A stretch of 15,236 nucleotides of DNA from positions 895,013 through 910,248 of the forward strand of contig CAJINV010000015.1 in NCBI GenBank assembly GCA_905178155.1. The letters run 5' to 3'. This stretch comes from Amoebophrya sp. A120 (Eukaryota; Protista; Dinoflagellata). Every line of letters begins with the position of its first letter. Positions within the stretch are counted from its first letter, which is position 1. Below the pieces are notes generated by a model. That model was not told where the DNA came from and did not search any database. It saw only the letters and a program-made list of their open reading frames with translations. This document shows positions 1 to 15,234 of the stretch, one piece after another. A program made the position numbers and the translations under genes.

Positions 1-220
1 CCCGAGGGCCATCTTCACACACATACAAATTTCTCAGGTTCTGGCTACCGTACAACATGCTAGGGCGGGGCCGATACATAAAATACCGCCCGCCCAGCCT
101 CAGCCTTGGCTCACAGGCTCGCAAGACTGCTGCTGCCCGGGCATACATTTTTATTTTAGAGACCAAAGTTAGCATCACAAGTTCCAATTCTTCCAGACCC
201 AGACATTTTTGCATTTGATA
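1..220. mobile_element. Introner family B, partial (left end outside the window), in the PAN/Apple-like gene
   Basis: Right terminus ttccagacccagacatttttgcatttgata is nearly identical to the end of 5392-5653. Confidence 0.85.
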
Positions 221-1156
221 CGTGGCAATGTCACTACCCCCGATCGCGAGGGAGTTGAACTCGTTGCACGCCCCGCCCCACACCGCGGGGCAAACGCGGC
301 CCTTCAGCTGACACTGATCTAAGGAGTGCTCCTGCCAGTGACTCCCACTTTCCTCTGTACAGCCAGCAGAAAAAAGATCGCACCAGCCCTCCGTTCGGTC
401 TGTTCGTGTGGTGAAGGTCGTGCAGCCGTCCGTCATGGCGCACAGGTACCGGCACTCTTCCTTGGAGTAAACTCGGTCCGAGTAGAAACCAACCCTTTTG
501 TCCCGCCACTCTTTACAACCTTTCGCGACTCCGGGGCAATTTGCGTCGCTGTCGAGCAAGGGGGTCTCTTGTTGGTCGATGCACTGTGCCTCGTTACGCT
601 GCAGTGTGTAGTAGGGGTAGTCGTGATTGCCGGCCTGCAACGCCGAGGTCGTCGCCAGCGTTGGGTCAACTTGGCATCCAGCCCGGTAAAAAATGCAGTT
701 GATATTATGTGTCGCCATCGGAACAATCCCGAACGCAACGCACCCGGAAATGGCCCGACACTGAGTGTCACAGGACCGTAACGTCTCGGTAGCGGTGTTC
801 GTCCGCGAAATCTCATAGGTGGCACTGCTTTCGTCGCACCCGCCACCCCGCTCCGGTAAACACAACGGGTTGAAAAAGGGCTCCAGGGAAAAAGCAGCAT
901 GAACCAGAGGGAGGTGAAAGTAGGAGGAGCTATTTTTCTTTTCGACTAAAAACAAAAAGCAGCGGAAGAACAAGATGAACAACAAACACGGAGCGAGAAG
1001 AGAGTAGGAAAAATGAAACGCATGTAGTTTATTTCGCTTTGATATTTTCGCAGTTGTCCCGGCGGCACTTCCCGTCCTCGTCGTTCTCGTTGCCCGGCAC
1101 CTAAGCAACAAGCGAACATGTGTTCTTGACGATGAAACATTCAACATCGTCAACAT
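221..1156 (-). CDS. First exon of a Cys-rich PAN/Apple-like repeat protein with an N-terminal hydrophobic segment (gene continues past the left edge)
   Basis: Missing from the ORF track because the frame has no stop inside the window. It is open from ATG 1156 (upstream in-frame TAG at 1187-1189) into the introner at 1-220. Translation includes the hydrophobic SLLAPCLLFILFFRCFLFLV and two repeats with PAN/Apple-like Cys spacing: LRSCDTQCRAISGCVAFGIVPMATHNINCIFYRAGC and SKEECRYLCAMTDGCTTFTTRTDRTEGWCDLFSAGC. Start codon uncertain. Confidence 0.72.
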
Positions 1157-2170
1157 GATCGTATTCTGCTCGTGCTGACGGTGCAGCTACATCCTTTTCA
1201 CAGAGGACTACTTTCACGAACGACTACTCGAGGAATTAGTATCTGCGAAAGCAATTCGAATTCTGCTTCTAAACAAACTTTGTTTAACAAAGCCTCTACG
1301 AGAAAGCAAATAAACACTTTTTCTACGCGTACCTAGGTAGTTGGTGCGAAGTAGCACTTTGTTTCCCCGAAGAACCACTTCAAAAATAGAATCTCCACGA
1401 AAAAGAAAGAGCTCCTGCATTCATGATCTTCACATCGGCAATTTGGATTTACGTCGGGGAAGTGTATGAATATCAAACGAATGAACTACGACGCAACAAA
1501 AAAAGCCGCACAGAAGTGTGCAAACTTTTGAGATTTGGAGTAATGGAAAGCGCCTCGTCGACCGAAAGCCGCCGAGGCAGCAGGGAAAAATACCGAAAGA
1601 AATCATGATCAACCATATTCCGGTTATTAAGCGGTAATGAAGTAGCGATGGGAAAAGCAAAAGTCATGCAGAAGCAACTTCAACACAGCACCATCGCATG
1701 ATGGGGTTGCAGCCCCAAGAATCCTGCTTCTTCCTGTTTCATAGACCAGACTGAAAACGCCGGTATTAAGCAGTTCTCCCCAACATACTTCATGAAAAAA
1801 AAAGAAGGTCCTCAACGTCTACTGCTCGCCCCTAGGGCGCGTCATGGAGTTTTTCGGTCTTTTGGACGGCTTGCAAGCCACTGAAAGAAGTTCCAGTTCG
1901 CATTACATACATGATAGTTCTTTTCTTTGCACGATAATTGTCTTCACGTATTTTCAAGGTGGTTTTTCCAGCTACGGTTCGATTTTCGATTCGATTTCTA
2001 CTTGAAACAAAATTACAGCTCAACTTCAAGGTGAAAGTAGGTACTTAAAATGAAAAAGTGATTCTGTTCTTGTTGGATGTTACGCTAACGGTTACGGAAA
2101 AATCGCAAACTCCTACTGCTGGGGCTGTTGATTACAGTACATACTTACTGCAGCACCCAAGTAGACTGCC

Positions 2171-2299
2171 ATCAGCTCCACTCCCGCTCCATGAGGCCAT
2201 TCTGAATGTCCCAATCAGCTCCACTCCCGCTCCATGAGGCCGTTCTGAATGTCCCGATCAGCTCCACTCCCGCTCCATGAGGCCATTTTGAATGTCCCA
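2171..2299. repeat. 3 x 43-bp tandem repeat spanning the KAP stop codon
   Basis: Units 2171-2213, 2214-2256 and 2257-2299, consensus atcagctccactcccgctccatgaggccattctgaatgtccca, with 1-3 differences between units. Confidence 0.95.
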
Positions 2300-5200
2300 C
2301 TCGAGATTCATCTGGTTAAAGTACCCCCCGCCTGCTCCGCCTGCATTCATTATCCAATGTAAAAACGTCCCCACCCCATAGTCAAGATGAGGATTCGGCT
2401 AGACAAATCCACAAGTTTTGCATGTTTTGCATGACAAATGTGCAACGTGGACTCGTAGTGTAGTGCTGTTTGAGGTACTTAGTTCAGCAGCATCACAGAT
2501 CCAGTATACCAGGCTGATTGGAGCATGACAAGTTTCAAAACTACGCGAATAAAAGATGCTTGCCATGGGGCTGCGCATGAGAAACATTCTCAGCATGCAG
2601 ATTTGCACTACAACTATGGGGTGGGGATGTTTTTAGATACGATATTCATCCCCAGAGAGTTCTCTACCTCCCACGCCTCCCCGGTTATTTGGGAACTCGG
2701 ACTATTGGAATTGCTTCCGAATTGGTTGTTGAACGTATGTCCGTTCATGTTACCGAATCGATTATGCAGCCCGTCAACATTGTTCTCGTAGTCCTCGTCT
2801 TCCCCAATTCCAATGATGCTCGTCTCGTGATTCAGCATGGAAATCTCCAAAACCCACTGGTTATTGTGCGACTCGAACTTCAGGCCCTTGATCCGCTCCT
2901 GCCAAGTGGTCTGCCACAAGGGGCTGGTGGACGCGTTGGAAGAAGAGATTAGCGACAGCGTGTCGAGCGTTTTCCGCGCTTGGTTCTTCACGGCAAGAGA
3001 CTTGTGGTTCAGCGCGTCAATGACGTAGGGAATGAGCTGCTGGCTATGCATTTTTGCGAAAGTATCGGTATCGCACTCGTCTAAATCGCATGACAAATTT
3101 TTCCAGAAGGAGAATCGGGCTCTGTCATGCTGATTCAGGTAAAATACCTCCAGATCTGTATCTGTAATGCAAGACTGCCATCTATACATACGAGTACGAA
3201 GATCATACTTTTGCAATGCATAGTGGTCCTCCTCTAGCAGAAACTCTCGAATCTCGTCCTGCAACGACATGCATTCGAAGGCGAACAGTAAATGGAGGAT
3301 GATACCTATCGCACGAAAAAAGTGTTTCACTGTAAGGATTTTGCAACTTTTGCATCACAAGTTTGTTCCGCATGACAGAGAAAATTTGCCATGCGGAATT
3401 CCTAGGGGAAAACACAGCTACAAATCCATTGTCTTGCATGTGTGGCAAGGCAAATGCTTCTCAGATACATTTTCTGCATTACAAGTTTACAGCGAAACAG
3501 TTTTTTCTTGCGATAATATCGTCGTCTTCCTGCTTCTCTACCAGCAATTCGATCAACGTCGACAGCAATTTCGGCTTATCCTGTGCAAAAGTATCGTACT
3601 CGTATAAATGCAAGTCTTGCATTACAAATCTTGTTTCCAAGGCAAATCTGCATTACAAATTTTATTTCTCACGCGGAGGAAATTTGTAATGCATTTATAC
3701 GAGTACGATACTTTTGCAATGCATACGGCTCCAGCGCTAACATATGAACTGCAAAAGTATCGCTATCGCACTCGTATAAATGCATTACAAATTTCCTCAG
3801 CATGAAAAATAAAATTTGTAATGCGGGTTTGACTTGAGAAACAAATTTGTAATGCATGATTGCAATACGAGTACGATACTTTTGCAGTTCATATAACAGC
3901 TGCGACGCTTCCTCGTTTTGCGCAATCAGTTGGACTACCAATACGGACTCGAGCACGAGGTCGTCCTCCGAGAACCCCACGACGAGGAGTCTGTGTAGCA
4001 CGTCCACCAACCCGTAGTCGGGCGAGATCAGTTCCGCCCAGGGCACCGGCGGGATCGACGGGTCATTGTTGGGCAGGTCCAAATTCGCAAGTAAGCCGAC
4101 GACCTCGAGCAAGAGATCCGGGTCTTCCAGTTGTGCAATACAAATTTCCCGTACATGTACAAAATGCATCACAAACTTCGCTAACTTTGAGTGTCAAACT
4201 TGTCATGCTGACTAAAGATTGAAGGCAAGTTTTGTCATGCAGAGACAACATTTGTACGTGCACAGGAAATTTGCTGTGGATACCAGTTGTGCGAGTTTCA
4301 TTATCTCGTGCAGCCACCGAGACATGCGGACCTGGAGATGAACTTGCGAGGATGTTGTTAAACTTAGCAGGTTGATGCAACGAACTATCTGATGATCACG
4401 TCCGAACAATGAATGCAGCATGTTGACAAAAGAAATCGCCTTCTTCAAGAATCAGTGTATATTTACCTTATGTATTATACCTGATCACTGCACAGCAATC
4501 GCTGTACCAATTCCCTGACCTTCTGGTGCGAGCACACGTAGCGTATTACCTTGCACAGCATGGGGTCGCGCGTTTTCAGCAAGCGTAGGATGAGCTGCGG
4601 AAAGAGAAAATCGACCTGCCCGTTGTTGCGGTGGAGCTGGCACACAACCATGAGCTCCGCCGCTCTACTGTGCATTGCAAATTTGTCTGGGTCTGGAAAC
4701 CTGTGATGCAGGCCAGTGAATACGAAGCTCTCTGTAATGCACCGCGAAGCATGACAGGTTTTTTCGTCGCGCTGCGTTGCGTATTCCGCGCAAGAAAGTG
4801 CGCTTTTGCATGACAGGCAAGAGGAGCTCCTGTTTGTGGCCGCGCAACACAGAGTCAAGAGTCATGCCAGACAAGCATGACAAGCTTGCACTCTCACAGA
4901 CCCAGACATATTTGCAGTCGATATCTACTGTGCAAAGACAAGTTCACCAGCAGGCAGATCAGGTCCTTGCCCACGCGGTTTGGGTCCGGAAAGTGAATGG
5001 TGAGTTGCAGCAGCATATGCATTGCAAAAGTGTCGAACTTCTCGTAGTTGTAATAGCATTTGTGCATTACAAGCTCCTCCCTTAAGCTGAATCCGCATCA
5101 CAAATTTCACTCCTCATGCTGGGCAAATGTGTAATGCAATTTTTTTTTTTTGTTGCGATGCTTTTGCAATTCATACAGCATCAGCATGCAGTCTTGGTGG

Positions 5201-8200
5201 TAGGTCAGCAGCGATTTGCACCGGTCGTCTTTGGTGAACTGGTAGAGGAGTTTCAGGACAATTTGTCGGAAGGGCGGGTGCTTCAGCAAATCCACCAACT
5301 GCTGAAAAAGTTCCCCGGACTCCGCCAGGGCGGACCGGACACTATCCTCAAAACTCAGGTTGAAAAGCACTTTCAGCGAGAGCAACGCGATTATCAACCG
5401 CAAACGTGTCTGGGTTTGGAAGGTCACAACTTGTGATGCTGTCTGTGGATTCTAAAAAAATTTGCATTGCATGACCAGCAAGAGGGGGCGGGTTTTTCCT
5501 ACGCGGAGAGGGCATTTCTCATGCGGTAGAGGCATCACAAAGCCCTCTAAAAATCTGCGACGCTACGGCATGCATCACAGACATCATGGCCCGTGGAAAA
5601 TATGCATGACAAATCTAGAAATCTTCCAGACCCAGACATTTTTGCACTTGATAGCGATAAAAGCAGACTGATGTTGGGCGAGTTGCACCTGTTTTTGTGT
5701 TGATGTTGGCGGCCTATAATATATATACTTTGTCACAATGGAAAGGAATGGGAATCTGAATCGGAGTTATTTCAGCAATAGAATATTAACGGGCCTTGTT
5801 CATGATCAGCGTTTACCCTCCGATGCGCTAATATCCGCACGCTTTGACTTTTTGCGTGCCGGCGCATGATTTAGATTCAAGCAGCAACTTTTTTGACTTT
5901 TATCATACCAGCCTGGGCACGATCCTCGTTTCTGCCATGACTTCCTTGTTTTCTTCAAAAATTGTCAACTTCTTCAAAATATCCTGTGCAAAAGTATCGT
6001 ACTCGTATAGATGCATTTCCTCAGCATGAGAAATAAAATTTGTCATGCGGATTTACTTTAGGAAAAAAATTTGTAATGCATTGATTGCAATACGAGTACG
6101 ATACTTTTGCACAGAATACAAAAACAGCAGGGCGACGTAGAGCAGCTCTTCCATGTTTCGGTCTAACAAGGCACACAACATTTTCACGAGTCCCCGATTC
6201 ACCATCTTCTTCTCGATGAAAATATCCTCTGCTATATCGCAAGAAAAAACTGTTATTTCACTGTAATGCAGAAAATGTATCTGAAAAGTGTTTGTCTTGC
6301 CACATATGCAAGACGAAGGATCTTTAGCTTTGCTTTCATCCCTTAGGAATCTCGCATGGCAAATTTTCGCTGTGATGTAGAGCAAATTTGTGATGCAAAA
6401 CTTGCAAAATCCTCACAGTGAAACACTTTTTCCGAACGATATGCTAAATTCAGCAAGATGTGCAGCGCAGTGTGGAGGAGTTTGTTCTGTTTCAATACTT
6501 GTACCTGGTATTTCTTCTCTTCCTTTTCCGCTTTCACTTTTTGCTGCGAGAAAGAAGTGCTAGCATCTTGCTGCTGGTTGTGGGAGTGTCAGGATTGAAA
6601 TCGTCGAAGTTGAAATAGTTTGCGATGCATAAAATGCTAGACGCAAAGTGCCTGTCTTGCAGAACAGGCAACTGAGGCCGATTATAAGCCTGTTTGGGGT
6701 GTGAGATAGAGCTGCCAAAATAGCATGACAAAAGCAGTCCTCTCTGCTCAAACAGCACGACAAATTGGATTTCTATGCTGCCAAAATTTGTCATGCGCCA
6801 CTTGCAAACTGGGCTCCAGCTGGTATCGCTTTGTTGCATTTGCAGACTATTTCAACTTTGAGGATTTCGATCCTGACACTCCCATACTGGTGGTCTACTC
6901 CACCGGGTGGAACATTTTGGCCGGTGTTCAAAAACGGCAGGATGTATTGTTCCCGCTCCTGCGTTGTCCTTTGCAAAAGTATCGTACTCGTATCGTATTG
7001 CTATCATGCATTACAAATCTTTTTGCTATAGGTAAATCCCCATTACAAATTTTATTTCTCATGCTGAGGGAATTTGTCATGCATTTATATATACGAGTAC
7101 GATACTTTTGCAATGCATATGCGTCCGGATTGCGTATCTTTTCGATTCGTACTCCAATATCCTGAGACTCGAGTCCCCGCATTGGAAGTTCTATGGATTC
7201 CAAAAGTATCGCACTACTCGTATAAATGCATTACAAATTTCCTCAGCATGAGAAATAAAATTTGTAATGGAGATTTGCCTTGGGAACAAGATTTGTAATG
7301 CATGATTGCAATTACTACGAGTACGATACTTTTGCACAGGGTAAGTTCCCGAGCACTTGGTGAAACACCGGAAACGCGGAGAAGCACAGTATGAACTGCA
7401 AAAGTATCGCACTCGTAGTAATTGCATTTATGCATTACAAACCCGGCTCCCAAGGCCAATCAGCATGACAAATTCCATTTGTCATGCTGAGCGAATTTGT
7501 ATTGCAATCACAACTACCAGTACGGTACTTTTGCAATGCGTACACAGGAAGATGCAGCAAATCGCGGTGGACAGATCGTGCGATTTTTTGTAGTTCTCCT
7601 TCAGTTCTCGCGACAAAATCGGCATCAAAGACTCGTTATCAAATGCAAAAATGTCTGGGTCTGGAAACTTGTAATGCTAAAAATGAATGATAGACGCGCC
7701 GCAATACGCAGCTATGGATGACAAATTTTGTGGCTGCCATGTCTTACGTATTCCGCATGGCAAACTGCCTTTTCGCATGACAGTTAAGAGGGCTCTTTCG
7801 TGCCTATGCAACACAGATTCTCGAGTCATGCCAGACAAGCATGACAAACTTGCGTCCTTCAAACCCAGACACTTTTGCAATTGCTACTCGTGGTTCGAGA
7901 TCAATTCCAAATTTCGTGGCTCCAAGCACACCCGGAGGATGGACTTCGCGCCCTTCACCTTCAGTGGCAGTTGTTCTTCGTAGAGCAAGTCCGAGTAGTC
8001 GTCCAGTTCCGCCCAACTGGCCGGGGTATCAAGGTGAAAAATGCCCCCACCCCCGAACTTGGGAGCATTTGTATTGCAAACCTTTCCAAATGAAACACTC
8101 GCCCTCTTGCATCTATCAGCATCACGGATTTGTTCCAATCGTGAACAATAGCAAAGATTTGCATTGCAAAAGACGCCAGCAAGAGTGGCGCTTGTCATGC

Positions 8201-9131
8201 AAGCGATGCGATACACGCCTCGAATCTGCATCAGAAAGATTCATTTTCATACTTCTTTCATGCATGACAAAAAGTTTTCATTTGGAAACTTCGCATCACA
8301 AGTTTTTGCGACTTTGGGGGTGGGGGCATTTTTCACTATAATACGGGGGCAGGATGGTTTCCAGCACGGAAAGCACCGGCGGGGGTGGGATTGGCCCCGA
8401 CGGCATCATGTTCTGCTGCTGCATTTGCGCGTTCTTCTGCTGCAGCATCGACCTGACATCTCCTCGGTCTGCGGTGCGACTACGGCTGCTGCTCGGGCGC
8501 GCCGCGTTTGGATTCGTTGCCGTGGAAGAAGATGTCGGCCCGGTGCCTATCCTGTGTAAAAACGTCCCCACCCCATAGTCAAGGTGGGGATTTTGCAACA
8601 CAAACCTAGAAGTTTTGGGACTCACGCATCACAAATAGCAGTCCGTAGTGTAGTGCCGATTAGCAAGGACACACGCATCACAAATCCATCTGCTTATCCT
8701 GGTTACAGCATTACAAATGCCAAAACACGACTAGAAACGCCTCTCATGGAGATACGCATTACAAATGTTCCTGTCATTGCAAATCTGCATCACAACTCTG
8801 GTGTGGGGACGTTTTTACAAATGATAGTGCCGGGGTAAACGCCTGAAACAGCTCCAGCACTCTGTCCGCCACCGCCTCCGGTCGTTTCTCGGGCCATTTC
8901 GTGCAGTAGTCTTTCCACCTCGTTGACTTTCGAACTGGGGATGTATTTGCATTTTTCCACTACCTCCGCCGCCAGGTCGGTTATATCTGCTTCGGCAAAA
9001 TCCCGTGGCAGGCGCATTTTCTTTTTCTTGATCTCTCCGCCGGACTCGTAGACTGCAACGATCGCGTACTCCTCATAGTCGATTTGCAGGTCCTTCAACC
9101 GCTTTTTCGAAGAGCTACTGGAAGATGTCAT
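2258..9131 (-). CDS. KIFAP3: Kinesin-associated protein (KAP3/KIFAP3/FLA3 homologue; armadillo-repeat accessory subunit of kinesin-2), 21 exons, 881 aa
   Basis: Exons (upstream TSD copy counted as exon): 9131-8827, 8542-8344, 8021-7887, 7631-7543, 7384-7344, 7186-7120, 6959-6887, 6573-6442, 6229-6119, 5974-5909, 5688-5654, 5386-5176, 5010-4924, 4663-4481, 4331-4283, 4126-3894, 3737-3726, 3571-3516, 3301-3223, 3039-2645, 2345-2258 = 2646 nt, ATG to TGA, no internal stop. Motifs are collinear with KAP3 as I recall it: LAAEVVEKCKYIPSSKVNEVERLL; ELDDYSDLLYE; LSRELKENYKKS; KQNKLLHTALHILLNLAED; LFLKKLTIFEENK; LFNLSF; LLEVVGLLANL; EDDLVLE; LIELLVEKQEDDDI; WQERIKGLKFESHNNQW. Confidence 0.93.
2351..2644. 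mobile_element. Introner family C (KAP intron 20)
   Basis: TIR tatccaatgtaaaaacgtccccaccccatagt / actatggggtggggatgtttttagatacgata; TSD ttcat 2346-2350 and 2645-2649. Confidence 0.92.
3045..3222. mobile_element. Introner family A, diverged (KAP intron 19)
   Basis: TIR tatgcatttttgcgaaagtat / atacttttgcaatgcata; imperfect TSD ctggc/gtggt; removal joins EEDH to QLIPY. Confidence 0.85.
3307..3515. mobile_element. Introner family E (KAP intron 18)
   Basis: TIR tatcgcacgaaaaaagtgtttcactgtaa / ttacagcgaaacagttttttcttgcgata; TSD atacc/atatc; reverse-complement homologue of 6235-6441. Confidence 0.92.
3577..3725. mobile_element. Introner family A (KAP intron 17)
   Basis: TIR core tgcaaaagtatcgtactcgtataaatgca at both ends; TSD cggct 3572-3576 and 3726-3730. 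Confidence 0.93.
3743..3893. mobile_element. Introner family A (KAP intron 16)
   Basis: TIR tatgaactgcaaaagtatcg / cgatacttttgcagttcata; TSD taaca 3738-3742 and 3894-3898; opposite orientation to 3577-3725. Confidence 0.93.
4132..4282. mobile_element. Introner family G, single copy here (KAP intron 15)
   Basis: TIR core caaatttcccgtacatgtacaaa / tttgtacgtgcacaggaaatttg; TSD ccagt 4127-4131 and 4283-4287. Confidence 0.88.
4332..4480 (-). other. Canonical GT-AG intron (KAP intron 14)
   Basis: Donor CAG|GTATAA contains an in-frame stop; acceptor CATCTCCAG|GTC gives SDQVRMSRWLHE. An alternative in-frame acceptor at 4389 cannot be excluded. No TIR or TSD. Confidence 0.7.
4669..4923. mobile_element. 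Introner family B (KAP intron 13)
   Basis: TIR core tgcaaatttgtctgggtctg / cagacccagacatatttgca; TSD tctac 4664-4668 and 4924-4928. Confidence 0.92.
5016..5175. mobile_element. Introner family A, diverged (KAP intron 12)
   Basis: TIR tatgcattgcaaaagtgtcg / cgatgcttttgcaattcata; TSD cagca 5011-5015 and 5176-5180. Confidence 0.9.
5392..5653. mobile_element. Introner family B (KAP intron 11)
   Basis: TIR tatcaaccgcaaacgtgtctgggtttggaag / cttccagacccagacatttttgcacttgata; TSD gcgat 5387-5391 and 5654-5658. Confidence 0.92.
5689..5908 (-). other. Canonical GT-AG intron (KAP intron 10)
   Basis: Donor CTG|GTATGA, acceptor CACAAAAACAG|GTG; joins IVPRL to VQLAQHQSAFIALL. AT-richer than the exons; no TIR. 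Confidence 0.85.
5980..6118. mobile_element. Introner family A (KAP intron 9)
   Basis: TIR tatcctgtgcaaaagtatcgtactcgtat / atacgagtacgatacttttgcacagaata; TSD caaaa 5975-5979 and 6119-6123. Confidence 0.93.
6235..6441. mobile_element. Introner family E (KAP intron 8)
   Basis: Ends tatcgcaagaaaaaactg / cactttttccgaacgata; TSD tgcta 6230-6234 and 6442-6446; removal restores LLNLAED. Confidence 0.93.
6579..6886. mobile_element. Introner family F, single copy here, about 50-bp TIR (KAP intron 7)
   Basis: tgtgggagtgtcaggattgaaatcgtcgaagttgaaatagtttgc versus the reverse complement of the right end, tatgggagtgtcaggatcgaaatcctcaaagttgaaatagtctgc; TSD ctggt 6574-6578 and 6887-6891. Confidence 0.93.
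6965..7119. mobile_element. Introner family A (KAP intron 6)
   Basis: TIR core ttgcaaaagtatcgtactcgtat; TSD tgcgt 6960-6964 and 7120-7124. Confidence 0.92.
7192..7343. mobile_element. Introner family A (KAP intron 5)
   Basis: TIR core caaaagtatcg / cgatacttttg; TSD agttc 7187-7191 and 7344-7348. Confidence 0.92.
7390..7542. mobile_element. Introner family A (KAP intron 4)
   Basis: TIR tatgaactgcaaaagtatcgcact / agtacggtacttttgcaatgcgta; TSD cacag 7385-7389 and 7543-7547; removal restores IFLCFSAF. Confidence 0.92.
7637..7886. mobile_element. Introner family B (KAP intron 3)
   Basis: TIR tatcaaatgcaaaaatgtctgggtctg / caaacccagacacttttgcaattgcta; TSD ctcgt 7632-7636 and 7887-7891. Confidence 0.92.
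8027..8343. mobile_element. Introner family D (KAP intron 2)
   Basis: TIR core gtgaaaaatgcccccaccccc at both ends; TSD cgggg 8022-8026 and 8344-8348. Confidence 0.93.
8548..8826. mobile_element. Introner family C (KAP intron 1)
   Basis: TIR tatcctgtgtaaaaacgtccccacccca / tggtgtggggacgtttttacaaatgata; TSD gtgcc 8543-8547 and 8827-8831. Confidence 0.93.
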
Positions 9132-10605
9132 GGTCCGTCGTGTGATGGATCTTCCAAGAACCGGATAATTGATTCCTCCCGCCGAGCTGCAGTACCGCTA
9201 GCGCCTGTCGAGACGGTAAGTACTTCTACAGCAGCTCCTTTGTAGTGAATACGCGCTGGCCGACGTGTAAGAACTAATTCTTGCGTCGCGCGGCTCCGTC
9301 TGAACGCCTTGCCGTCTTCATTCGCCCGGAAGATGAAGAACCAGCGACGGCACGTCTACTACTTCCAGCCGAATTTCCTAGAAAAAACATGCACTTATAC
9401 AAAACTGGTCGTCCCACTCTATTGTCACTCTTCTGCCGCTCTCGGCTGCTCTCCGAGAATCATACTTAGCTGAAAAAGAACGGCAACTCAACAAAACTCG
9501 CGAAAGAAGTATGACCACCTCTTACGAGCACGCTCAGGACCAGACCGGAGGTGATACAAGGGTGCAGCTCTCAACCAACATGGTACGCAGAAAAAAAAAG
9601 AAACCAAAGTAGCCTACACACGTATAATCACACGTGCGGTACACCGAGATGAAGCGCCTGCGCACTCAAGAAACTACACAGCCTGCGCGTGAGGAGGACG
9701 GCTGCAGCTCCCGCACCAGCTCCTGAGTGTGAGAAGTTGTATTCTTGAATCGATGAGCGTGAGAGTCGTACAACCAGTTTGCCAAAAATAACCTTTCGTT
9801 CTGTAGCTGCAATAGTGTCAGAAGTACTAGCAGGTTCAGTGTGCCGCGAATTTTTGCACCGTTCGTGTTCGTATGTTGAATCTTCCCGCCAACAGAGATT
9901 TGGATTTCTTTTGGCGTACAAGTCGCTTGCCGTAACAAGCGCGTCCTGCCGTGACTAATACAGAAAGCAAAGGAGTACTGTGGCACCGTAAACGTGATTT
10001 ATTTTTGAGAAATAGTCTTCCATAGGGTTCAAAATTAGTAGGACATTGCACAACTCAGCTGGTCTTCAATTCTAATTTTTCAGGGGCGTAGAAATTGGTA
10101 ATGCTTGTTGTTTTTGAAAGAAAGCTCTTGAATTGGATCTGAAAATGTAACAAAATTTTTCCGATAATGTAAATGTATGAAGTGAGAAGCACTACGTCAA
10201 TAGCAAAATGTGTAAAGCGTAAACGTAAAGTTGTGAACAATTAAATTGTACACGTCAATGACTGAAGATAGCACAAAACAAAGTTATACGAGAGTTCGAT
10301 GTTTACAAAAAAAAATACTTTAAACGACAGTTTGTTTTTGCACGACCCTAAATAACCACCACATGATTTTTTCATTCCTTTTTCAACCGCCTCTGTGTAA
10401 GAAATTTTGTCGATCTTATTTCAACTCAAATCACAGTCATGTTGCGAAATGATATCACTTCCCCAGAACTTTTCGCACCTCCGCTCCGCCTCGTTCCACC
10501 TCATCTTGTTCCAAAACACCATCTTCATCCCCGCAGATAAAAGAAAAATCTTTCACGCGGAAATGAAAAGGTGAATAAAACTCCACATCGTCCCCCACCG
10601 CGTTT

Positions 10606-13539
10606 TTAAAACGGCTTCTGCAGCGCGTCAACGATGCCGCTGGCCGCTTGCATGACGCGGGCCTGGGTGGCCTCGTATGAATTACAAAAGTATCGTACTC
10701 CTCGTATAAGCGCATTACAAATTTTCTCAGCATCAGAAATAAAATTTGTCATGCGGATTTACCTTGAGAAAAAAAGTGTAATGCACGATTGCAATATGAG
10801 TACGATACTTTTGTACAGGATACCTCGTGCGTCCGAGCGAACTCTTCCTGCTGCTTCTGAATGAAGGCAGAGGCCTCCGCTTCGGCCGCAGCCTCCAGCT
10901 GCTCCGGAGTCAGCAGTTCGCCCGTGATCCGGTCGGCAATGGAGATCTCGGCCTCACCCTCGGCCGTGATGGTGGTCTTCTGCAGAAAGGTATGCAAGAA
11001 AAAAACTATGTGAGTGTAAGTCTGTGATGCTGAAAATGCAAAGCTGTATACACGTGTCATGCTGGATGTGCGTGGTCGTAGACTACTTTCATACGTGTTT
11101 TCACATGCTAGCTGCGCATCACAGGTTTTCCCTGTAATGCAAAACGAATTTGTGATGCTGCCCTTTCTACAAGGTTACACTGACACAGTTTTTTTCCTGG
11201 ATAAAAGGCGCTGGCACCTCCGGCCCGGGCGGCGGCCTGCGCATTGGCATTCATCCGGCCCCCGCCGCGGCCAGACGCTGCGGCATGCGCATTCGCGTTG
11301 GCCGCAGCAACAGCCTCGTCGTCGCCGTCCCCAGCCGGGATGGTGTTCACACCACCCTGCGACAGGATGCCGACTTTCACCCGTTCGTTGACTTGGTCGT
11401 AGTTTCCACGCATGTCCTATCCTGAGCAAAAACGTCCCCGCCACCCCAGAATCAATTGTCATGCAAATCTGCATGCAAAAAAAGTTTCTCATGCGGGAGC
11501 TTCGCAATCGCATGAGAATCGTTCTCAAGTCGTGTTTTGAAGTCTGTGATGCTAGAATCAGCACGATATGCTAGATCAGTGATGCTGCTGGACTAGCTCA
11601 ACAGGATTACATTCACCGAGGACAAACTTGTCATGCGAAACAGCCAAAGCTGGCTGATTTGTCTAGTAGATTTCCTATCTTGACTATGGGGTGGGGAGGT
11701 TTTTGCTCAGGATATGTCCGCGTTCTTCATGACCTGCTCGGCGGTTTCGGCTTGCATCTTCATGGCGACAGCCGTTTGCTTATGCATTGCAAATATGTCT
11801 GGGTCTGAAAGGATGCAAGGTTTGTCATGCTTGGCCGGCATGACTCTTAGCTCTGTGATGCATGAGCAGGAAAAGAGCCCCGTGGGTGTTATGCAAAAAC
11901 GCAGTTTGTCATGCGCAAAGCGAAAGACATAGCAGCTCAAAAACTTGTCATGCTTGGCCACGTATTGCAGTCGTGCATCCACTATTCACTGCTTTGCATG
12001 ACAACTTTCCAGACCCAGACATTACATTTGCAATGCATATTGCTTCGCCATCAGGTCCAGCAGCGCGGCGTAGTTGTGGTACTGCTCGGATCAAAGTGAA
12101 AAAAGCCCCCACCCCATATCGGAAACGGAAGATGCGCGAATTTGTGATGCTGTATTTGAGTACACAAATCGACTTGTATTGCTAGAAGGCCAAGCGACGA
12201 AGCTGCGGCCTAAATTGCAGGCAGTCTGTCATGCTGTTCCCCACTTCCAGTTGCCTCCTGCCATCCTGGAGCTGCAAGGCTTTCCCACGCTAGGCAGCAC
12301 TACAGTCCACCGCATCTTCTGGCTCTGCCTTCTAGCATCACAAGGCTGATTTGTGACCACAAATCTGCATCACAGATTTTGATTTCCTTTTTGATATGGG
12401 GAGGGGGCATTTTTCATTGCCATAGCTCCGCCGTTTGCTGCAGCACCACCGCCTCACTGCGAAGGCTGTTTTTTTTATTGGTGAAGAAGCAAAATTTCTT
12501 CTGATAGGTACCAGCGCGATTTTGCATAATTGCACTTTTCCTTTTTCTTCATCTACATTTTCTACCAAAACGAATGAATTCAACTGATTCAGATGATGGC
12601 GATCATCCCTGGCCCTGCTTGCAGACGCACAGAGAAGCTGCAGAGTCTTATTCTTAGTATAGTAAGTACTCATATTTTATTCTTCTTTTGCACATTATGT
12701 ATGAAACCAAACGAAACACTGAAATTTTATGGGAAAAAAAAGTACATTTTGGCGGACATGACAATTTTTTTGTGCATGGCTTGCAGGTTCTTCGCTTGCA
12801 GGTGGTTCATCTTGGCCACCTTTTCCATCTGTATCCCGCGTAAAAACTACGTCCCCACTCCAAGTCCAAAGTTCTTGGAATGCAAATCTGCATGCTCAAA
12901 ATGTTGTTTCATCTCATGCGGAGGTGTAGACCCATGATGCGACGCACTTCCTAGTGCCGTTTTGATAAATTTGCGATGCTCGCAGCCGAGTGCTGGTGTG
13001 CTAGATCTGCATATGTGATGCTGCTGCACTAGCTAAAGTTATCAAGACGACTACATTGCGACGTCGCGCCCAAGTAGTTTGTCATGCGCAACAACCAAAG
13101 CTCGTTGATTTAGATTTTTCTAGCAGATTTTCCATCTTGACAACTGCAACGCGAAGGAGGAAATGGGGACGTTTTTACTCCAGATAATCAGCTTGGCCGC
13201 ATCGTCCCCCATGGCAGGGAGCTTCTTGCCTTTGCCGACGGGCGCGCCGGCGCTGGCGGACGCGGAAACCTCGACCTCGGTGTCATCGTCGCAACAAGAA
13301 GAAGAACTGGCGAAGGAGCCATCGTTTTCCGAGGAATACGAAGCACTCGATTCGGCCGACGAATCGGATTTCGTCTCCTGCTTGGTCGCCTCCTTGGCCA
13401 GGAAAGAGGTCGAGGAGGGAACCGCCGCCGCACCAGCAGTGCCCTCGGTTTTGAACGCCGAGGCTTCGCCCGAGGTCAGGCAAAAGTTGGTGGAGACGAG
13501 GAGCTTCGCTCCGGCCAGGACCTTGGCTTTGTACAACAT
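10606..13539 (-). CDS. Hypothetical Ala/Ser-rich protein, possibly secreted, 8 exons, 338 aa
   Basis: Exons 13539-13187, 12826-12746, 12465-12425, 12083-12040, 11775-11715, 11412-11204, 10985-10823, 10670-10606 = 1017 nt, ATG to TAA. The frame is restored across 6 introners and one GT-AG intron: MLYKAKVLAGAKLLVSTNF...AAKLMEKVAKMNHLQAKNLQAMHKKIVMSAKILRSEAVVLQQTAEQYHNYAALLDLMAKQTAVAMKMQAETAEQVMKNADMRGNYDQVNERV...SAFLQKTT...SAFIQKQQEEFARTHEATQARVMQAASGIVDALQKPF*. No family recognised. Confidence 0.8.
10676..10822. mobile_element. Introner family A (gene 2 intron 7)
   Basis: TIR core tacaaaagtatcgtactc; TSD cctcg 10671-10675 and 10823-10827. Confidence 0.92.
10991..11203. mobile_element. Introner, family E-like (gene 2 intron 6)
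   Basis: TIR tatgcaagaaaaaaactatgtgagtgtaa / ttacactgacacagtttttttcctggata; TSD aaagg 10986-10990 and 11204-11208. Confidence 0.9.
11418..11714. mobile_element. Introner family C (gene 2 intron 5)
   Basis: TIR tatcctgagcaaaaacgtcccc / ggggaggtttttgctcaggata; TSD tgtcc 11413-11417 and 11715-11719. Confidence 0.93.
11781..12039. mobile_element. Introner family B (gene 2 intron 4)
   Basis: TIR tatgcattgcaaatatgtctgggtctg / cagacccagacattacatttgcaatgcata; TSD ttgct 11776-11780 and 12040-12044; opposite orientation to 4669-4923. Confidence 0.93.
12089..12424. mobile_element. Introner family D (gene 2 intron 3)
   Basis: TIR gatcaaagtgaaaaaagcccccaccccatatc / gatatggggagggggcatttttcattgccata; TSD gctcg/gctcc. 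Confidence 0.88.
12466..12745 (-). other. Probable canonical GT-AG intron (gene 2 intron 2)
   Basis: AT-rich; donor AAAAT|GTACTT and acceptor AAAAAAAACAG|CCTT give the in-frame join MSAKILRSEAVV. No TIR. Confidence 0.68.
12832..13186. mobile_element. Introner family C (gene 2 intron 1)
   Basis: TIR tatcccgcgtaaaaactacgtcccca / tggggacgtttttactccagata; TSD atctg/atcag. Confidence 0.88.
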
Positions 13540-14401: not shown

Positions 14402-15107
14402 TCACATCGACTGAACTCGTCCTGCTTGCTCTTGCAGGAGGTTGTCAACAAGTATAAAGTTGTGACGCGCAAAATCATTCTCGCTGCGCAGTTGGCACCG
14501 CCGGCTGGATATTCGTATTCCTTTTTTCGCTAGATATTCCTCAAACTCAGTTGCGGATTGGATACTGCTTCTCAGATGGAAGACATTCGAATTTCTCTTT
14601 GAGGCGGCGTTATGATCGTGACTTTCACCAGAAAAAAGTTCTTCGAACCATGCGTCTAGAAGTGCGACTGGCAAAAACATCTTGTCACCGTCAAGGACAA
14701 GAGCACTAGTAGAGAAGTCGGAGCTGCTCGACGTCTTGCTCCCAACAAGAGCATTCCGGGTGATCAGTCCTGGTGTTGGGTTTCTCAATTGCACTATGTT
14801 TCGCACACTATCCTGCACATCCTTCACCATGGCCTGAAGGTTCTGGCTCTTCTGCAGCTGAAAGGAGGTAGTTGATGTTGTAGAGCGAGACGTCTGATTT
14901 CGATGAGAATTTGCTGGAACTAAATCTAGTTCCGTCAGATCCCTTGTCAGTGCCGCGGAGGGAAACAGGGTGAGGGAAGAGAAGGAATCGAGCAGGTAGC
15001 AGGACGCAGCTTCCGTAGAGGACTTTTGTGATTGTACTCTACTTCCCAACCGCTTGCTGATGCTGGCCTCGTATTCATCTTGGTGGCTGTAGTTATTCCC
15101 ATGATGA
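14402..15107 (-). CDS. Probable last exon of an unknown gene entering from the right edge
   Basis: The 215-aa ORF 14402-15049 starts at TTG, but the frame stays open upstream (HHGNNYSHQDEYEASISKRLGSRV...) to a candidate introner at 15108. Same strand as the neighbouring genes. No recognisable domain. Confidence 0.5.
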
Positions 15108-15234
15108 TCTGGTAACCAAATGCGTGCGCGCGCGCGCGCAGAGCGCGCGCCGGCCCACGAAGCCGGCGCGCGCGCTCTGCGCGCTTGCGATATTGCTTAG
15201 CAAACGCAGCGCGAAGGCAGTTGCCGTTACCATA
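15108..15234. mobile_element. Candidate GC-rich introner of a distinct family, with an internal hairpin
   Basis: Ends tctggtaac / gttaccata are inverted repeats. Internal arms 15134-15154 and 15162-15184 are complementary. The right TSD is cut off by the window edge. Confidence 0.5.

Follow-up and report, generated by a model that had tools for sequence, protein, structure and literature searches.

Introners of the dinoflagellate Amoebophrya sp. A120 have been described in 29,850 copies and 1,954 families, with inverted repeats of 8–20 nt, a terminal inverted repeat (TIR) motif of TAT, seven variable bases and AAA, and direct repeats of 3–5 nt, or of 5 bp in the legend of Fig. S19 (Farhat et al. 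2021, PMC7789003). The same paper counts 66,565 A120 introns with at least three junction reads, 65% of them non-canonical, and proposes a second splicing route or a modified spliceosome, leaving the mechanism open. Also reported from A120 are genes interrupted by tens of these introns, and introners with TIRs and integrase-like open reading frames (ORFs) (Gozashti et al. 2025, PMC12130899). In our literature search, with subscription papers outside its coverage, no paper was found that settles how A120 removes the elements. Here we analyse a stretch of 15,236 nucleotides of the A120 genome (contig CAJINV010000015.1, positions 895,013 to 910,248; hereafter the window), in which TIR elements interrupt three genes, among them that of the kinesin-associated protein KAP/KAP3.

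The elements share with the introners of Farhat et al. 2021 the organism, the TIR motif, the repeats at the exon-intron borders, the families, the lack of coding capacity, the GT-AG introns in the same gene, the predicted hairpin and the non-canonical junctions. A preceding reading made from the letters only (the sequence-only reading) had taken them for Amoebophrya introners, and both the TIR motif and the identity of the three encoded proteins with A120 proteins agree with it; judged by these sequence features, they almost certainly belong to the published class. The element class and the phenomenon are already known from that paper, and since it already proposes a second route or a modified spliceosome, the same proposal in the sequence-only reading is not a new inference. 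The additions made here are the presence or absence of elements in a second allele, the occurrence of both orientations, a bracket on the crossover and the polarity of the ends. In the text of Farhat et al. 2021, supplementary figures S19–S25 aside, we found no mention of families in both orientations, presence or absence between alleles, bracketing by imperfect duplications, end polarity or an internal octamer, and no difference in kind from the present elements.

Two other systems come close. The non-conventional introns of euglenids likewise have non-GT-AG ends, an end-joining stem, repeats like target-site duplications, a probable origin from miniature inverted-repeat transposable elements (MITEs) and GT-AG introns alongside (PMC12501133, PMC11282704). 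However, they carry a CDG/CH'G core 3 nt and 5–6 nt from the cuts (5'-N3 CDG ... CH'G N5-6 / R, the slash marking the cut; PMC12501133), an arrangement not found here, whereas in the A120 elements a TAT tip precedes a GCAAA-like stem at TIR positions 9–13; the A120 elements are also recent, polymorphic and present in many copies. For Euglena, excision as circles has been reported (PMC12501133, PMC11282704). Fritillaria borealis has MITE-derived non-GT/AG introns whose processing the authors ascribe to an altered U2 spliceosome (PMC13326754, PMC11282704); those introns prefer AG-AC and AG-AT ends and a TAC target, whereas the junction bases of the A120 elements are free (PMC13326754). Among integrase-like DNA transposons, the termini of IS3EU/GingerRoot are mostly TA..TA and sometimes TG..CA, as in 4 of the 24 complete elements here, but their duplications are usually 6 bp and not 5 bp; Ginger2 makes 4–5 bp (PMC10045372).

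Exonic TIR elements and the need for their exact removal

The elements were searched for as 5-bp direct repeats beside inverted ends, first strictly and then with looser settings, and the imperfect cases were settled by hand. This yielded 24 complete elements of 139–355 bp and one truncated by the window start (ending at position 220), which agrees with the 25 elements in three genes counted by the sequence-only reading. Every one interrupts an exon, in one of three genes on the minus strand: 18 in KAP, 6 in gene 2 and one, partial, in gene 3. As had also been claimed, 18 of the 20 KAP introns are of this type, the other two being GT-AG introns. A strict detector of TIRs with 5-bp repeats gave 21 matches in the window against 0–3 in each of 20 shuffles, and a loose one gave 57 against 10–15 across 5 shuffles.

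Read in the sense of the transcript, the 5' ends of the 24 complete elements are TAT (21), TAC (2) or TAG (1) and the 3' ends ATA (19), ACA (4) or ATC (1). The earlier description of TAT...ATA-type ends with a 5-bp duplication lacking a consensus was thus right about the consensus and too strict about the rest: exact TAT...ATA termini occur in 16 of the 24 elements, and the duplications are perfect in 20, with five mismatches in 120 positions at 3045, 3307, 12089 and 12832. A duplication consensus was ruled out, no base exceeding 10 of 26 at any of the five positions. Clustering of the TIR-trimmed cores gave four multi-member families (17 of 24 elements) and seven singletons, a threshold-dependent result that replaces the earlier estimate of about seven families. 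Every family occurs in the window in both orientations relative to the transcript (A, 4 vs 4; B, 2 vs 2; C, 2 vs 1; D, 1 vs 1).

The elements are non-coding, their longest stop-free stretch measuring 104 codons, and the window holds no transposase gene. They have the features of MITEs, namely TIRs, a duplication of fixed length, single-copy empty sites (five in the second allele, L001, described below) and no transposase. The octamer GCATNACA was present in all 24 elements, across otherwise unrelated families; 78 of its 79 copies in the window and all 15 in L001 lie inside elements. Its orientation flips with the element, so it was rejected as a branch site and suits a double-stranded DNA site of a common transposase, for which it is a candidate binding site. 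None of the 21 substitutions in the two elements shared with L001 falls in its 72 bases, too few for a test. No internal motif with a fixed strand was found in the elements, and the 20-nt TIR pattern had no match in viral contigs.

When each element was removed together with one duplication copy, along with the GT-AG introns, the KAP gene yielded a protein identical at 881 of 881 residues to the public A120 protein P0002, which matches the Pfam family KAP (PF05804, E=3e-115); the intact 881-residue KAP reconstructed in the sequence-only reading was thereby reproduced. The same scarless removal in gene 2 gave 338/338 identity to the A120 protein P0007, and exon 1 of gene 3 is identical to P0008 (312/312), so that the proteins of all three genes are 100% identical to public A120 models. 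These models were built from BLAT-aligned transcripts, BLAT being used because the splice sites are non-canonical (PMC7789003).

Retention of a single element breaks or prematurely ends the ORF in 22 of 24 cases (16 of 18 in KAP); 3045 and 3743 read through. Sliding of the junction within the duplication gives a scarless GT-AG reading for one element (10676) and a GC-AG reading for one other (8548), exactly as claimed before, to which 11418 adds a GA-AG or AT-AC reading. A U2-type GT or GC donor with an AG acceptor is thus readable in 2/24 elements only. Junctions at other nearby GT-AG sites, named by the sequence-only reading as a finding that would speak against it, were sought up to 20 nt from both ends: a frame-keeping pair exists for 14 elements, nine of them in KAP, and none was found for 10 of the 24. 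For the nine KAP elements, the first four alternatives per element were scored against a four-homologue profile, and the score was lowered in seven, the same in one and raised by less than 5 bits in one. Use of nearby GT-AG pairs as a general rule was rejected on both counts. These results show that the elements need to be removed exactly.

A second KAP allele and the position of the cut

One scan of a metagenome, with 263 candidate stretches, returned a single locus, L001, a 2007-bp piece of KAP from a close relative. Over 898 coding bases, the window and L001 differ at 29 bases, 1 of 299 residues and 10 of 137 fourfold sites. The span common to both contains seven window elements, of which two are shared and five absent from L001, and at every empty site there is just one duplication copy. 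L001 in turn carries three private elements of the same stock, one of them truncated by the contig end. With five of seven elements absent, three others present and a single residue changed, the elements are polymorphic insertions and KAP, whose two alleles encode the same protein, is under purifying selection; that it is a pseudogene was ruled out. The five duplication mismatches lie, as we infer, within the expectation from the 7% fourfold divergence to L001; selection for identical duplications was rejected.

The private insertion at L001:1720-1864 is in frame and stop-free, and a gene caller read through it, producing the chimeric database protein P0001; read-through artefacts of this type could pollute protein collections. 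In the alignment with L001, the shared GT-AG intron (4332-4480) has 18 gap columns in about 160, and the two shared elements have 3 and 2 per about 280. The elements may tolerate indels less than the GT-AG intron does (n=2).

The imperfect duplications bracket the cut. P0002 is reproduced only when the crossover from the upstream to the downstream duplication copy follows base 2, 3 or 4, and at 3045 it takes base 1 from the upstream copy and base 5 from the downstream one. P0007 requires a crossover after base 2 or later at 12832, where the upstream copy supplies base 2. At 3307, the base-2 change in the downstream copy would alter a conserved Asp, and L001 has the upstream version at its empty site; base 2 therefore comes from upstream, and L001 confirms the lower bound independently of annotation. 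If one register is assumed for all elements, the crossover therefore follows base 2, 3 or 4, and we consider such a fixed register probable.

If the crossover followed base 4, all of the introns would start N-T-A-(T/C/G), and the canonical donors of the window are GTAT, GTAT and GTAC. The transcript 5' ends begin with TA in all 26 complete elements and in both half-visible ones, compared with 21 of 26 for the mirrored 3' ends (Fisher p=0.051), and the four TG-type ends all belong to the 3' side in the transcript sense. Over the 26 elements, the 5' end reads T1 in 26, A2 in 26 and T3 in 23, with A at positions 11–13 in 25, 25 and 26. HISAT2 and BLAT may place junctions of this kind at one among several equivalent positions. 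In Table S4 of Farhat et al. 2021 (PMC7789003), all nine top A120 motifs start N-T and all nine top A25 motifs start TT, the A25 TIRs starting TTA; both would put TA at +2/+3.

The predicted folding of the elements beat that of dinucleotide shuffles in 24/24 cases (z -3.5 to -14.6; 15 shuffles per element, 20 C), the ends pairing whichever strand is folded, while the three canonical introns all folded no better than their shuffles (z +0.6 to +1.0). The TIRs pair well at positions 1–3 and 9–14 and poorly at positions 4–7 (12–15 of 26). At the tips, six A.C and no G.U mismatches were counted in the transcript sense (p=0.03; post hoc and small), and the tips therefore act like sequence that is read and not like selected pairs.

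Possible routes of removal

The following route would accommodate these results. The elements, almost certainly the published A120 introners, are non-coding transposon copies inserted into exons in either orientation, and they would be mobilised in trans by an integrase-like DDE transposase, as suggested by the TA..TA and occasional TG..CA ends and by GCATNACA. Removal would take place at the RNA level, as described by Farhat et al. 2021 (PMC7789003), and on the basis of that paper and the gene models this step is very probable. The TIR stem, best paired at 9–14, would join the ends and fix a single register, with the crossover after base 2–4 and most likely after base 4. The intron would then start N-U-A-(U/C/G) and match the local donors G-U-A-(U/C) in bases +2 to +4, position +1 being unconstrained; its end would lie 4 nt beyond the stem and lack AG. 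A relaxed spliceosome, for which the predicted hairpin of the termini would serve as a ruler in place of GT and AG, would take out each element along with sequence equal to one duplication.

A120 has one PRP8, one SF3B1 and one U2AF35, plus U1-70K, U1A and U1C (Farhat Table S6, PMC7789003), and with these single copies and retained U1 proteins one machine fits better than two. A precedent exists in Fritillaria, where a U2 spliceosome handles 95% non-GT/AG introns (PMC13326754). We rate hairpin-registered excision by one relaxed spliceosome, taken as a whole, as evenly balanced between true and false, and spliceosomal catalysis by itself as slightly favoured. The wider proposition, that an A120 splicing route reads an end-joining stem and a fixed spacing and not a linear code, is held with somewhat more confidence; it would be served either by a spliceosome free of G+1 and AG or by a second cut-and-ligate machine acting on the same pre-mRNA. 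The second route or modified spliceosome suggested in the sequence-only reading gains from the 22 of 24 disruptive retentions, the ten elements lacking a GT-AG pair, the purifying selection and the agreement of the models with the scarless product.

Several observations weigh against excision by a hairpin-guided relaxed spliceosome. The upper bound on the crossover comes from a single junction (3045) in a BLAT-based public model, the tests of end polarity were post hoc, small and borderline, and G is not enriched at the putative +1 (11/28 vs 28% background, p=0.13). The N-T starts in Table S4 agree with a crossover after base 4 but may reflect the choice of the aligner among equivalent positions, for which reason the table was rejected as proof of the register. 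No AG and no common branch or pyrimidine signal was found in the elements; the sole shared internal motif flips, and each strand version is absent from 3–4 of 24 elements. Within the body of the stem, 13 G.U against 10 A.C show no preference for G.U (p=0.68), and in the two shared elements paired positions are not spared by substitutions (19/21 vs 389/495, p=0.27); selection on RNA structure is therefore not shown, and selection on stem-body pairing, not being detected, was rejected. The pairing of the TIRs is explicable by the needs of the transposase alone, and a stable stem across +2 to +20 would mask the donor and branch region from U1, U6 and U2. Finally, at 6579 a nearby GT-AG pair that deletes 4–5 residues has a slightly higher score in the four-homologue profile (+4.5/+4.8 bits).

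The same RNA-level removal could instead be the work of a separate, non-spliceosomal machine resembling the one proposed for euglenids, in which a hairpin-guided endonuclease and an RNA ligase would release circular or linear introns. Removal blind to orientation, free junction bases and strong end-joining hairpins on either strand all suit such a machine, and U1 small nuclear RNA was not detected in A120 by Farhat et al. 2021 (PMC7789003), although the U1 proteins are kept (Table S6). Euglena introns have a paired core at a set distance from both cuts and a downstream exon starting with a purine (PMC12501133). The only echo of this code here is that the fifth duplication base is a purine in 20 of 28 cases (p=0.04 one-sided, post hoc), and the elements lack a CAG/CTG core like that of Euglena. 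No endonuclease or ligase of this kind has been identified, and in one of the allowed registers the 5' ends agree at +2 to +4 with the donors of the neighbouring spliceosomal introns. We regard this explanation, the main rival, as possible but less probable than a relaxed spliceosome.

Excision could also occur in the DNA of transcribing nuclei, as with the internal eliminated sequences (IESs) of ciliates, leaving one duplication copy so that ordinary splicing would suffice. Ciliate IESs begin with TA, which the TA starts of the elements resemble; the scarless product equals the pre-insertion allele seen in L001, and direct repeats would suit microhomology repair. However, the elements are present in the DNA of both assemblies, the polarity of the ends with respect to the transcript is not expected from a DNA cut, and in Farhat et al. 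2021 the junctions were taken from RNA-seq, with transcript contigs of the dinospore stage aligned to the genome (PMC7789003). DNA-level excision is accordingly unlikely.

Still less probable is an ordinary spliceosome acting on GT-AG pairs close by, whether or not the ends undergo RNA editing. In its favour, 14 of the 24 elements have a frame-keeping pair within 20 nt, 10676 can be spliced without a scar and 6579 scores no worse against homologues; but the other ten have none, every listed alternative lowers the profile score in seven of the nine KAP elements, the transcript-based public models follow the scarless junctions, and Farhat et al. 2021 (PMC7789003) found editing at just 4% of the intron ends in A120. 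It is most improbable that the junctions are reverse-transcriptase jumps across hairpins in pseudogenes or genes that retain the elements: such artefacts arise at hairpins combined with short direct repeats (PMC8240250) and the published junctions derive from cDNA, yet 16 of the 18 elements in KAP would disrupt the ORF on retention, while two alleles with differing element sets show one changed residue in 299 against 10 changes at 137 fourfold sites.

Neighbouring features and biological meaning

The positions of all features are collected in Table 1.

Table 1. Genes, canonical introns and TIR elements of the window, with the private insertions of L001 in the last row. End types are given in the transcript sense.
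Feature	Position	Strand	Remarks
KAP/KAP3 (kinesin-associated protein) gene	2258..9131	-	881 aa, 21 exons; 18 TIR elements and 2 GT-AG introns
Gene 2	10606..13539	-	338-aa protein; 6 TIR elements and 1 GT-AG intron
Gene 3, exon 1 (312 aa)	221..1156	-	rest of 1232-aa Cys-rich protein beyond window
Canonical KAP intron, GT-AG	4332..4480	-	donor GTAT; also in L001
Canonical KAP intron, GT-AG	5689..5908	-	donor GTAT
Canonical gene 2 intron, GT-AG	12466..12745	-	donor GTAC
TIR element truncated by window start	1..220	-	transcript-5' end and one duplication copy visible
TIR element, family B	2351..2644	-	perfect 5-bp duplication
TIR element	3045..3222	-	duplication copies differ at bases 1 and 5; sets crossover upper bound (<= base 4); in frame, stop-free if kept
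TIR element, family D	3307..3515	-	3' duplication copy altered at base 2; L001 empty site = 5' copy; lower bound (>= base 2)
TIR element, family A	3577..3725	-	not in L001
TIR element, family A	3743..3893	-	orientation opposite to 3577; not in L001; in frame, stop-free if kept
TIR element	4132..4282	-	ACA 3' end; not in L001
TIR element, family C	4669..4923	-	ACA 3' end; also in L001
TIR element, family A	5016..5175	-	not in L001
TIR element	5392..5653	-	also in L001
TIR element, family A	5980..6118	-	
TIR element, family D	6235..6441	-	orientation opposite to 3307
TIR element, singleton	6579..6886	-	ACA 3' end
TIR element, family A	6965..7119	-	ACA 3' end
TIR element, family A	7192..7343	-	TAC 5' end
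TIR element, family A	7390..7542	-	TAC 5' end
TIR element, family C	7637..7886	-	TAG 5' end
TIR element, singleton	8027..8343	-	
TIR element, family B	8548..8826	-	sole GC-AG reading; crossover after base 1, outside 2-4 bracket
TIR element, family A	10676..10822	-	sole GT-AG reading; crossover after base 4
TIR element, singleton	10991..11203	-	
TIR element, family B	11418..11714	-	orientation opposite to 2351 and 8548; GA-AG or AT-AC also readable
TIR element, family C	11781..12039	-	orientation opposite to 4669 and 7637
TIR element	12089..12424	-	ATC 3' end; duplication copies differ at base 1 (synonymous)
TIR element, family B	12832..13186	-	duplication copies differ at base 2; public model retains 5' copy's base
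Private L001 insertions	L001:462-609, 1720-1864, 1937-2007		

The product of gene 2 matched no Pfam family under E=0.06. The protein of gene 3, P0008, has an A120 paralogue, P0009, that is 70% identical, and gave a weak match to PAN_4 (PAN/apple-like; E=0.0015, below the curated cut-off); this Cys-rich protein is a possible adhesion protein of the parasite. At the 3' end of KAP, a 43-bp unit in three tandem copies (2171-2302) overlaps the stop codon (2258-2260) and the 3' untranslated region (UTR). A GT...AG stretch of 23 nt, its donor reading GTAT, lies upstream of the KAP start codon (9378-9400, minus strand) and is a candidate for a tiny 5' UTR intron or a trans-splice acceptor. About 235 stop-free and element-free codons at 14405-15109 (minus strand), with a weak match to HeLo (E=0.05), are probably part of a fourth gene. 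At 15126-15185, two GC-rich, perfectly complementary arms of about 20 bp flank a 7-nt loop; this inverted repeat differs from the TAT-type elements. A scan of the window with Rfam at gathering thresholds gave no matches.

The value of this window lies in its natural duplication mismatches, which bracket the cut, in a testable strand rule for TG-ended copies and in a KAP transcript that carries both intron types and so offers an internal control. Imperfect duplications and TG-ended copies together provide a way to read the exact register in RNA-seq data that already exist. If excision is indeed registered by the hairpin and free of signals at the junction, it would explain how A120 tolerates tens of thousands of insertions in its exons, since a transposon landing anywhere in an exon, in either orientation, would be removed without a scar. 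It would also mean that intron recognition can stray far from GT-AG.

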